Positions 132 through 1,732 of a stretch of DNA of 11,108 nt are shown here, one piece after another (positions within the stretch are counted from its first letter, which is position 1; each line of letters opens with the position of its first letter). The notes under the pieces were generated by a model. It did not search any database. It was not told where the DNA came from and was given only the letters and a program-made list of their open reading frames with translations. The stretch is from UHGV virus genome UHGV-0246901. The stretch is one strand, 5' to 3'. This stretch comes from a virus. The translations under genes and the position numbers were made by a program.

Positions 132-223
132 CCGGTACGGTTTGGTACGGTAGTGTTCTGTGAGGTCGGGTAATGTAAGGTAAGGTATGGGTGGATGGTA
201 GTAGCCACATTAAAAATCTACCA
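132..223 (+). repeat. GT5-H unit 1: (NNGGT)n pentameric tract 132-191 plus stem-loop 196-223
   Basis: Eleven consecutive pentamers ending in GT (ccggt acggt ttggt acggt agtgt tctgt gaggt cgggt aatgt aaggt aaggt), then stem TGGTAG(196-201)/CTACCA(218-223) with loop TAGCCACATTAAAAAT. No ORF; period is 5, not 3. Confidence 0.7.
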
Positions 224-229
224 AGTTTC

Positions 230-258
230 TAAAGAGTCTTCTGTTGAGGGTTCTTTAC
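230..258 (+). repeat. third copy of AAGAGTCTTCT motif (variant with extra bases) ~40 nt upstream of the first CDS
   Basis: TAAAGAGTCTTCTGTTGAGGGTTCTTTAC matches the spacer of IR-A (TAAGAGTCTTCT..AGAGGGTTT) but lacks the flanking 10-bp arms. Confidence 0.4.
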
Positions 259-298
259 AAACAACTTAACAATCAACTAAAGTGTGGAGCTAAATGCT

Positions 299-886
299 AT
301 GAAACTGTTAAATATCAAAATCACTGGTACTCGTCCTTTCCTGAGCCACGCAGATACGCTGTCAGACCCATTAAACCCTCTGACAAAGTATCACAAGTCT
401 CTGTCCAGTAAACGTAAAAAGACTGACGAAGACTATGCGCTCTTAGCAGAAAGCCAACTGGTAACTTCTTGTTACTACGATGAGCAGCTAGGTTTTGTTA
501 TGAACGGTGAGATGATTGAGGCTTGTATCAAGTCTGGTGCAAAGCTCAACAAACTTGGTAAGGTAATTGACCGAGCCATTATGCTGACAGATGTAGTCTT
601 CCCAATGACTATCAAGAACTGTCCAGCAAACCCACAAGAACTTGCTAAGAATCCAGATTTTATCTATGCTAAATCTGTTAAGATTGGTACAGCACGAGTT
701 ATGAGCTACCGTCCAATCTTCCGTGACTGGTCTGTAGAGTTTGGTTTGATGTTCGATGAAGAGCAAATTACCCGAGAGGAACTCCTGATGGTTCTGGAAA
801 ATGCTGGCAACCTTTGTGGTGTAGGTGATTGGCGTCCACGCTTTGGTCGTTTTTCTGTAGAAGTTATTTCAGAAGGTAACGTTTAA
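299..886 (+). CDS. hypothetical protein (~195 aa)
   Basis: Track ORF 284..886 begins at GTG. ATG at 299 is preceded by GGAG (286-289) at ~9 nt and is the preferred start. Stop TAA 884-886. No recognisable motif by eye. Confidence 0.7.
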
Positions 887-888
887 TT

Positions 889-1329
889 ATGAATACAAAA
901 GCATTAGCAGCAAAGTTTAGTTACGGTGACACTGTATCACATTCTGAGATGGACACCTTCTTAGGTATTGTGAAGCCAACTTATCAAGGTGACATTGTTA
1001 AGTACGAAGATGAAATGAAGGCTTATGCACTTACACGTCTAAACCGACTTGAGAAGTTTATTGAAAAGCTTCTTAAAGAAGAGAAGATTTATCTGGTTGC
1101 TTCAATGGGTGTTGGTTATCGTGTGGTTGAACCTAAGCATCAAGCAACTATTGCAAAACGTAAAATGTCTGGTAAGATTGGTCGTGCTTTAAAGCAAGCC
1201 ACTCAAGCAATTGAGAATGTGAATACTATGGCACTTAGTCATCAAGAACGTTCACGACTGATTGAACAGCAAAACCATTTAGCTGCTATGAAAGCTAACA
1301 TTAACAAGCAACGTAGAAAACCTTTCTAA
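889..1329 (+). CDS. hypothetical protein (146 aa, basic C-terminus)
   Basis: ATG two nt after the upstream stop (translational coupling); consistent codon usage; followed directly by an intrinsic terminator. Confidence 0.7.
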   Translation: MNTKALAAKFSYGDTVSHSEMDTFLGIVKPTYQGDIVKYEDEMKAYALTRLNRLEKFIEKLLKEEKIYLVASMGVGYRVVEPKHQATIAKRKMSGKIGRALKQATQAIENVNTMALSHQERSRLIEQQNHLAAMKANINKQRRKPF

Positions 1330-1337
1330 GTTGACTA

Positions 1338-1363
1338 GGAAGCCTCTTCGGAGGCTCCTTTTT
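1338..1363 (+). terminator. rho-independent terminator T1
   Basis: GC-rich stem AGCCTC(1341-1346)/GAGGCT(1351-1356) with TTCG tetraloop, followed by CC and T5 (1359-1363), immediately after the stop of 889-1329. Confidence 0.7.
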
Positions 1364-1390
1364 AAAAGGTCTTTAAACAGGGTCTTTTAA
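1359..1390 (+). repeat. M motif copy 1: TTTTTAAAAGGTCTTTAAACAGGGTCTTTTAA (tandem GGTCTTT)
   Basis: GGTCTTT at 1368-1374 and 1381-1387; whole 32-mer repeated at 1609-1640 with one indel and one substitution; in both copies it starts at the T-run that follows a hairpin. Confidence 0.55.
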
Positions 1391-1391
1391 T

Positions 1392-1478
1392 AAGGTAGGA
1401 TAGGGTGGTGTATGGTTTGGTAAGGTTGTGTAAGGTAAGGTATGGGTAGTTAATCGGAGCTACATTAAAATTCGATTA
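1392..1478 (+). repeat. GT5-H unit 2: pentameric tract 1392-1441 plus stem-loop 1451-1478
   Basis: Ten phased pentamers, nine ending GT; stem TAATCG(1451-1456)/CGATTA(1473-1478), loop GAGCTACATTAAAATT. Stem sequence differs completely from unit 1 but pairing is preserved. Confidence 0.7.
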
Positions 1479-1517
1479 CATCACTTAAGAGTCTTCTAAG
1501 AGGATTTTTAAGTGATG
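1479..1517 (+). repeat. IR-A copy 2: CATCACTTAA / 19 nt / TTAAGTGATG
   Basis: Arms 1479-1488 and 1508-1517 identical to copy 1; spacer GAGTCTTCTAAGAGGATTT differs at 2 positions, one of which converts a G-U to an A-U pair in the inner helix. Confidence 0.7.
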
Positions 1518-1528
1518 TGGGGCGAGGC

Positions 1529-1608
1529 TCGGTGAGGTGGGCTAAGGTATAGCGCGGTGTTGTTCGGTATGGGTAGTTAGTCTCAGCTACATTAAAATGA
1601 GACTTACC
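1529..1608 (+). repeat. GT5-H unit 3: degenerate pentameric tract 1529-1568 plus stem-loop 1572-1608
   Basis: Same 5-nt phase but only about 6 of 10 pentamers end in GT; stem AGTCTCA(1579-1585)/TGAGACT(1598-1604) with outer GGTA/TACC, loop GCTACATTAAAA; followed by T5, so this copy is terminator-like. Confidence 0.6.
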
Positions 1609-1640
1609 TTTTTAAAAGGTCTTTAAAAGGGTCTTTTAAC
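1609..1640 (+). repeat. M motif copy 2: TTTTTAAAAGGTCTTTAAAAGGGTCTTTTAAC
   Basis: GGTCTTT at 1618-1624 and 1630-1636; near-identical to 1359-1390. Confidence 0.55.
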
Positions 1641-1732
1641 AAGGTATTGTATGGTGTAGTTTGGTTAGGTATGGTTAGGTGTGGTAAGGTAAGGTATGGA
1701 AGGATGGCAGTAGCCTTATAAAAAATCTGCCA
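1641..1732 (+). repeat. GT5-H unit 4: (NNGGT)11 tract 1641-1695 plus stem-loop 1705-1732
   Basis: Eleven consecutive pentamers all ending GT (aaggt attgt atggt gtagt ttggt taggt atggt taggt gtggt aaggt aaggt); stem TGGCAG(1705-1710)/CTGCCA(1727-1732), loop TAGCCTTATAAAAAAT. Confidence 0.7.

Follow-up and report, generated by a model that had tools for sequence, protein, structure and literature searches.

UHGV virus genome UHGV-0246901 was analysed as a single stretch of 11,108 nucleotides (hereafter the window), which comes from a Felixounavirus and whose closest records are 93–95% identical to it. Between positions 29 and 1732 it carries two genes and four non-coding tracts in which pentamers of the form YNNGG (Y, pyrimidine; N, any base) follow one another in phase. 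We consider it nearly certain that the region holds a VIPR (Viral Interference Programmable Repeat) locus of type II and that each of the four tracts is the guide region of one vrRNA, because its two proteins are almost identical to those of phage SUSP1, the repeats have the known anatomy, the tails form the expected pseudoknot and the guides match target DNA when one nucleotide is skipped. VIPR was described in two preprints of 2026 (bioRxiv 10.64898/2026.04.26.720920 and 10.64898/2026.04.26.720927) as an RNA-guided, CRISPR-like system of DNA silencing. It is composed of Vipr, a minimal RAMP protein of about 20 kDa, of an accessory gene, vap, and of vrRNAs with 9–16 YNNGG repeats and a constant 3' tail (same preprints).

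Layout of the locus

All features of the locus lie on the plus strand. It opens with a sigma-70-type promoter-like site at 29–56 (TTGACA, a 16-nt spacer and TATACT; 11 of 12 consensus matches), which is kept in Salmonella phage BPS17L1; its function is inferred, and judged from its sequence it would drive vrRNA1, vipr and vap1. A G.U-rich leader or spacer hairpin of type A (86–126; 19 bp, -20.0 kcal/mol, z = -5.5) stands directly 5' of vrRNA1. The guide tract of vrRNA1 (131–190) consists of 12 YNNGG repeats with NN = CC AC TT AC AG TC GA CG AA AA AA AT and runs into a 3' tail at 191–223, an H-type pseudoknot with the stems GUGG/CCAC and UGGUAG/CUACCA. Another hairpin (230–257, -10.2 kcal/mol) lies between this tail and the ribosome-binding site of vipr. 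The gene vipr (299–886) encodes the ancestral RAMP protein of 195 aa and vap1 (889–1329) the VIPR accessory protein of 146 aa; vap1 is followed by an intrinsic-terminator-like hairpin with a T-run (1341–1363, the hairpin itself at 1341–1356).

The other three vrRNAs are found downstream. First, a spacer hairpin of type B (1357–1395, -11.3 kcal/mol) precedes vrRNA2, whose guide tract at 1391–1445 has 11 repeats (NN = AA AG AG GG AT TT AA TG AA AA AT) and whose tail pseudoknot at 1446–1478 pairs GUAG/CUAC and UAAUCG/CGAUUA. Second, a type A hairpin at 1477–1519 (20 bp, -24.8 kcal/mol, z = -8.3) leads to vrRNA3, with a guide tract at 1518–1572 (11 repeats, three of them imperfect; NN = GG GA TC GA GG AA AT GC GT TC AT) and a tail pseudoknot at 1573–1604 (GUAG/CUAC and AGUCUCA/UGAGACU). 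Third, a type B hairpin at 1605–1646 (-14.2 kcal/mol, z = -3.6) is followed by vrRNA4, with 12 repeats at 1640–1699 (NN = AA AT AT GT TT TA AT TA GT AA AA AT) and a tail pseudoknot at 1700–1732 (AAGG/CCUU and UGGCAG/CUGCCA). The promoter-like site of the next operon (1751–1779) marks the downstream limit. Thus tract 1 sits between the promoter at 29–56 and vipr, and tracts 2–4 sit between the terminator-like hairpin of vap1 and the site at 1751–1779. Replication genes (ligase and polymerase) lie upstream of the locus, and all window genes in 1–5307 are on the plus strand, separated by a terminator at about 5306–5390 from a convergent block.

Extent and specificity of the period-5 tracts

A first-pass annotation of the window had reported runs of NNGGT at four sites, each before a conserved hairpin, and the runs are indeed present there. 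Phased printing and parsing, with the repeat defined as YNN(G/T)G, gave four phased tracts with 12, 11, 11 and 12 repeats, all on the plus strand. When in-phase GT dinucleotides were counted in sliding windows of 50 nt, the count reached 10 of 10 at 101–209 and at 1615–1718, 9 at 1376–1464 and 6 at 1508–1581. A count of at least 6 was found nowhere else in the 11,108 nt, and the maximum on the minus strand was 5; the maxima of 200 mononucleotide shuffles were 4–7. Moreover, three of the four tracts were picked up by Tandem Repeats Finder, with periods of 5, 10, 15, 20 and 25. Tract 3, with its three imperfect repeats, is the most degenerate.

The check that the first-pass annotation had proposed, namely whether such phasing is widespread in the genome and thus an artefact of composition, excluded the artefact: in the complete genome of the related phage heid (87,590 bp), tracts scoring at least 6 are restricted to the homologous locus, where five copies all lie on the plus strand. 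No open reading frame of at least 40 aa overlaps any of the four tracts, as had been claimed. A Rfam scan of 1–1850 with E values up to 1 gave no match, and the region contains no tRNAs. A search of the literature on intergenic repeats of Felixounavirus yielded just one unrelated screen for essentiality.

Vipr and Vap1

The protein encoded by vipr matches the PDB chain 36pp_D, “SUSP1 Vipr protein”, with 191 of 195 residues identical (98%; E = 2.1e-128), and a profile built from 36 members of the Vipr family matched this chain and no other in a search of PDB sequences (E = 1.9e-81). All 13 residues that contact RNA or DNA in the published structure are conserved, namely H17, K33, R39, E71, M72, K82, G87, K88, R138, C173, D177, W178 and R179; the list, taken from the structure in the VIPR preprint, covers the residues that hold the non-target strand, GGY and the target base that is skipped. 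The family has a conserved C-terminal motif that resembles the glycine-rich loop of RAMP proteins and is its most conserved part. Similarly, 145 of the 146 residues of Vap1 (99%) are identical to the product of the gene that follows vipr in phiSUSP1 (locus L021). Pfam has no family for either protein, both belong to PHROGs of unknown function (PHROG 4652 for Vipr), and Vap1, for which a DNA-binding fold is predicted, has no match in PDB.

We scanned IMG/VR for relatives of Vipr and obtained 24 loci, 18 close and six distant, the latter with 37–40% protein identity. The close loci have 3–5 tracts each, and four of the six distant loci have period-5 tracts on the sense strand beside the vipr homologue. 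The association between Vipr and the tracts is ancient, because even homologues of such low identity have adjacent sense-strand tracts. The distant loci L024 and L029 also contain a gene of similar size in the position of vap1.

These two distant loci show arrangements of their own. In L029 (2880–4320; IMG/VR contig 3300020049_003234) the intergenic spaces of the vipr-vap operon are all filled with long GGY/NN tracts, which stand immediately 5' of each ribosome-binding site and are accompanied neither by spacer hairpins nor by a tail of the SUSP1 type. In L024 (4100–5400; IMG/VR contig 3300037067_002413), whose Vipr is about 40% identical, an array of about ten units follows the operon terminator, each unit being a hairpin of about 10 bp (GCAA/GNRA loop, G.U pairs) and then a looser period-5 tract.

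The cryo-electron microscopy structure (PDB 36pp) has one Vipr protomer per pentamer, with the GGY bases flipped out and held by the protein. This bears on one suggestion of the first-pass annotation, that the sense transcript is either a repetitive platform for a binding protein or a two-tetrad G-quadruplex. The former part holds, given the stoichiometry in the structure and the 98% identity of the adjacent protein; what had been missed is that each pentamer also contributes its two variable bases to a programmable guide, by which DNA is read. That the tracts act by folding, as RNA or as DNA, into two-tetrad G-quadruplexes we regard as highly improbable. The GG run every 5 nt meets the minimal G2N3 pattern of such a fold, but in the solved SUSP1 complex both G and the Y are flipped out and held by protein residues that are conserved here. 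In addition, 13% of the repeats have a T in place of the G at position 4, which breaks the GG runs, and a quadruplex leaves unexplained why the NN match satellite DNA, as described below, only at a skip of 1 nt.

Repeats, tails and spacer hairpins of the vrRNAs

We parsed 87 vrRNAs from 20 loci of the clade and analyzed their conservation. The mode of the repeat number is 12, most vrRNAs having 10–18 repeats and about ten being parsed as shorter (4–8). The entropies of the five positions are 0.48 (Y), 1.90 (N), 1.87 (N), 0.84 (G) and 0.15 (G) bits; hence two positions are nearly free and three are constrained. In fact, between 60 and 67 unique guides were obtained (67 among the 87 vrRNAs) although the Vipr proteins are 97–99% identical. 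The guide of vrRNA4 is identical to one in phage AYO145A (L018), which is 100% identical to the window across unit 4, and no guide of the window is common to SUSP1.

This variability bears on the possibility that the tracts act as DNA, as iterons (an idea of the first-pass annotation) or as protein-binding arrays, at an origin of replication or a packaging site. They are non-coding repeat arrays and do lie near replication genes. However, binding of an initiator needs a kept sequence, and here two of every five positions vary almost at random (1.9 bits), even between phages with more than 90% identity elsewhere. The copy number, too, varies from 3 to 5, and the adjacent protein is an RNA-binding RAMP protein solved in complex with this RNA. 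An origin array is therefore given only a minute probability.

The tail of SUSP1-clade vrRNAs has been described as a pseudoknot (bioRxiv 10.64898/2026.04.26.720920, 10.64898/2026.04.26.720927), and the tails of the clade support this. Among 20 distinct tails with 11 pairs each, 91.8% of the cells are paired, vs 28–47% when the partner strand is slid, and nine of the 11 pairs are changed on both sides. The short stem (GUGG/CCAC, GUAG/CUAC or AAGG/CCUU) is paired in 100% of cases, and three of its four pairs covary. As a result, the conserved hairpin that had been noticed after each tract is present, but it is not a plain hairpin; according to the covariation, it is one stem of an H-type pseudoknot.

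The last repeat is nearly constant, with NN = AT in 49 of 60 clade guides and in all four tracts of the window (186–190, 1441–1445, 1568–1572 and 1695–1699). The conserved GGTATGG(G/A) that the earlier annotation had placed at the end of each tract corresponds to this repeat together with the first bases of the constant 3' tail. The last repeat matches predicted targets in 44% of cases, and positions 3–9 from the 3' end match in 93–99%. It may thus belong to the handle rather than to the guide.

Every vrRNA is bracketed by a conserved G.U-rich hairpin, with 12–20 bp overall. Two types can be distinguished: type A has 19–20 bp and -20 to -25 kcal/mol, and type B has 12–17 bp. The sequence of type A occurs in 30 conserved copies across 21 loci and that of type B in 23 copies, while the hairpin at 230–257 also belongs to the spacer-hairpin sequence family and has 20 copies with only three variants. 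The sequences vary too little for evidence of covariation to be obtained from the spacer hairpins. Their folding energies in the sense strand are about double those in the antisense strand; for example, the antisense strands of the type A hairpins at 86–126 and 1477–1519 reach just -11.0 and -12.4 kcal/mol. Judged from these sequences, the spacer hairpins are candidate processing signals and may be cut sites in a longer read-through precursor from which mature vrRNAs would be freed, for example by RNase III. Term searches of both VIPR preprints found no discussion of vrRNA maturation or of spacer hairpins.

The preference for one strand is relevant to the proposal that the complement of the tracts acts as a Rho-utilisation site and ends antisense transcripts. 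The composition on which it was founded is real, since the minus strand of the tracts reads (ACCNN)n and is C-rich and nearly free of G. Yet the tracts are always on the sense strand of vipr, even at 37–40% protein identity, and in satellites a single tract lies between a promoter-like site and a terminator-like hairpin, again on the sense strand. The flanking hairpins and the tail are G.U-rich and fold far better in sense RNA. Moreover, all genes in 1–5307 are on the plus strand and a terminator stands before the convergent block. There is next to no likelihood left for the Rho reading.

Predicted guide targets in E. coli satellites

The natural targets of SUSP1-clade vrRNAs are satellite phages of E. 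coli (VIPR preprints). A blastn search with vrRNA1 gave chromosomal matches in 141 complete E. coli genomes. The matched elements, about 12 kb in length, sit within yecE (DUF72) or close to wrbA or tonB. Each codes for a baseplate protein, a tape-measure protein and a large serine recombinase, besides small genes, and they fit the satellite described in the VIPR preprint. The promoter region of one satellite was found in 367 of 5,426 complete E. coli genomes.

We then compared the clade guides with three satellites. At a skip of 1 nt, 28 of 60 guides reached an NN identity of at least 80%, and none of the 60 did so at skips of 0, 2 or 3; in the control, flanking chromosome of equal length, one of 60 reached this level at the 1-nt skip. 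With seven satellites the number rose to 34 of 60.

With the last two NN set aside, three of the four guides of the window have a target match that none of 300 permuted guides equalled. The guide of vrRNA4 matches 21 of 24 NN bases in satellite L043 and 20 of 24 in L033 and L040 (19 of 20 without the last two NN), and its target comprises the extended -10, the -10 and the start region of a TTGACA-17-TAGTAT promoter of the satellite early operon. The guide of vrRNA1 matches 19 of 24 bases (18 of 20 without the last two NN) in the first coding sequence of the early operon, and that of vrRNA3 matches 17 of 22 (16 of 18) in the large-recombinase gene; in both genes the NN fall on codon positions 1 and 2. 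When the last two NN are set aside, the matches of all three arise only at a skip of 1. The best satellite match of vrRNA2 overlaps a ribosome-binding site and start codon and is not significant. As for self-targets, the best NN match is at most 67% in the window and at most 73% in the 87.6-kb heid genome.

These matches also concern the last alternative, a TRAP-like attenuator in which a multimer wraps periodic triplets and controls the vipr operon solely in cis. TRAP of B. subtilis binds 11 (G/U)AG repeats, and the 11–12 or so triplets at period 5 resemble them; besides, vrRNA1 lies within the 5' untranslated region of vipr. On the other hand, three of the four tracts are downstream of the operon terminator, satellites and some phages have a tract and no vipr or vap to regulate, and a cis attenuator would not be expected to have hypervariable NN with matches in foreign DNA. 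TRAP is like VIPR in that an oligomer reads a conserved triplet about 11 times at a spacing of about 5 nt on sense RNA. It is unlike VIPR in being a closed 11-mer ring that acts on its own mRNA in cis with uninformative spacer bases, whereas Vipr forms an open helix in which the spacer dinucleotides are the guide. The attenuator was our first idea and was dropped on the match to PDB 36pp; as the whole explanation we give it very little credence, although Vipr binding to the vrRNA1 leader may have a cis autoregulatory side effect. All four alternatives fail because none explains the hypervariable NN, the strict sense orientation and the matches to foreign DNA at a skip of one.

Identification and proposed mechanism

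The pattern in the window is thus real, functional and already explained as VIPR; the remark in the first-pass annotation that such an architecture had not been described has been overtaken by the two preprints and the PDB entry. In SUSP1, the NN pair with double-stranded DNA and every third target base is skipped, which leads to an R-loop triplex and transcriptional silencing. The SUSP1 vrRNAs are about 100 nt long, co-purify with Vipr and silence, according to small-RNA sequencing, pull-down and GFP and phage assays (VIPR preprints).

In the window phage, each tract would be the guide of a vrRNA of about 100 nt, and the hairpin that follows would belong to a pseudoknot capping the 3' end. 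By transfer from SUSP1, on the ground of near-identity, Vipr would polymerise on the vrRNA with one protomer per pentamer, hold the GGY and present the NN. By the same transfer, the NN would pair with target DNA and skip the third base, so that the resulting R-loop triplex blocks transcription. The four vrRNAs would then silence satellites that would otherwise exploit the phage: vrRNA4 presumably by occlusion of their early promoter, vrRNA1 from a position in the first gene of the early operon and vrRNA3 from one in the gene for the integrase-type recombinase.

The locus closely resembles the type II VIPR of SUSP1, with 98% (Vipr) and 99% (Vap1) identity, one vrRNA upstream and three downstream of vipr-vap1, 11–12 YNNGG repeats, hypervariable NN, a 3' pseudoknot tail, targets in E. 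coli satellites and a skip of 1 nt at the wobble positions of codons. The differences are that SUSP1 is a Suspvirus and the window phage a Felixounavirus, and that the sets of four guides differ. There are also likenesses to the Cas7 (RAMP) filament of Class 1 CRISPR, which has an RRM core, a glycine-rich loop and a thumb, polymerises on the guide RNA, interrupts the guide-target duplex periodically with the thumb and has a variable guide capped by a constant structured handle; the arrays of both alternate constant and variable segments. VIPR, however, has an RNA period of 5 nt in which two of five bases pair and one third of the target bases is skipped, whereas five of six bases pair in CRISPR. 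It further lacks cas1/cas2, contiguous spacers and a protospacer adjacent motif, is encoded by a virulent phage and silences rather than cleaves. The window locus does not qualify as CRISPR-Cas: the constant parts are the tail and the spacer hairpin, the variable parts are the pentamer repeats, and vipr and vap1 are the sole genes beside them.

Several points weigh against the identification or parts of it. For this phage, the evidence comes from sequence comparison. A terminator-like site separates vap1 from vrRNA2–4, and no sigma-70-like promoter is seen between them. The covariation in the tails comes from about five tail classes and hence from few independent events. As for targets, vrRNA2 has no significant one, with 17 of 22 matches (15 of 18 without the last two NN) and 47 of 300 permuted guides equal to it. 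The published cut-off (more than 80% over all NN) is passed by vrRNA4 alone (21 of 24), and vrRNA1 (19 of 24) and vrRNA3 (17 of 22) pass it only with the last two NN set aside. A perfect target was not found: mismatch-corrected target queries for vrRNA4 and vrRNA1 gave no allele that scored higher than the natural ones in all complete E. coli genomes, and the exact 1-nt-skip patterns of vrRNA3 and vrRNA2 had no matches in IMG/VR.

The exact pattern of vrRNA3 also had one match in GTDB genomes and four in JGI metagenomes. We treated these matches as chance, since the records are unrelated and several are GC-rich, and none of the matches extends to the next NN; by a rough estimate, a pattern with 20 specified bases would be met about once by chance in the genome collection of 596 Gb.

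VIPR has been proposed to be older than CRISPR (bioRxiv 10.64898/2026.04.26.720920, 10.64898/2026.04.26.720927), and the window is a clean natural example of it, from a group of E. coli and Salmonella phages that is in wide use. With this identification, the four tracts, two “hypothetical” genes and the satellites of about 12 kb in E. coli can be labelled. The signature was found from the raw sequence, so strict period-5 GGY phasing is usable as a detector of VIPR loci, and the guide-target pairs predict which satellite-bearing hosts are manageable for this phage. The system itself has been known since April 2026; what is added here are the guide-target assignments, the spacer hairpins, the constant last repeat and the vrRNAs without vipr.

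vrRNAs without vipr

We further found vrRNAs at loci that have no vipr or vap gene. In the Felix O1-type Salmonella phage BPS17L1 (L034:3430–3625; MG646672.1 41000–41195), one vrRNA of about 10 repeats lies between the ligase gene and the next operon, and the locus keeps the promoter, the leader hairpin, the vrRNA and a type-d tail. Across the phage collection, the vrRNA unit was found in 231 records vs 133 for Vipr. Each E. coli satellite has one vrRNA on the sense strand (L033:17931–18116; in L030, L031 and L032 near 18000–20100), with a sigma-70-like promoter match before it, an intrinsic-terminator-like hairpin after it and a tail that resembles that of vrRNA1 in the window. Satellite vrRNAs are mentioned in the VIPR preprint (bioRxiv 10.64898/2026.04.26.720920 / 10.64898/2026.04.26.720927). 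No homologue of Vipr or Vap was detected by tblastn in the BPS17L1 locus or in the four satellites searched.

That no vipr is found in the satellites implies that their vrRNAs depend on the Vipr of the helper phage. The orphan vrRNAs of phages could be remnants, or they could act together with Vipr provided in trans. Taken together, the stand-alone vrRNAs of Felix O1-type Salmonella phages and of satellites suggest elements that consist of a guide alone and use the Vipr of a co-infecting phage. In term searches, neither VIPR preprint yielded any mention of spacer hairpins, of a final repeat that is constant and unmatched to the target, or of vrRNAs in vipr-less phages. It is conceivable, though we rate it somewhat on the doubtful side, that these three features jointly point to an undescribed layer of vrRNA biology.

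Other observations

In phage heid, a gene-free region of 1.7 kb between divergent gene blocks (MN850577.1, 23201–24883) has four annotated repeat_region features; it has no period-5 GT signal and thus holds a different kind of repeat. In the window, tandem repeats of 27 nt (8555–8618) and 30 nt (8838–8896), with 2–2.5 copies and 82–93% matching, lie inside a minus-strand tail-fibre open reading frame of 395 aa (8427–9614). The terminator region at 5306–5390, between the thymidylate synthase gene (plus strand) and the holin and tail-fibre genes (minus strand), is a GC-rich hairpin with U/A runs. Its only Rfam match is a weak one to STnc100 (23 bits vs a cut-off of 47) that covers the terminator stem alone, and it is probably a bidirectional terminator.

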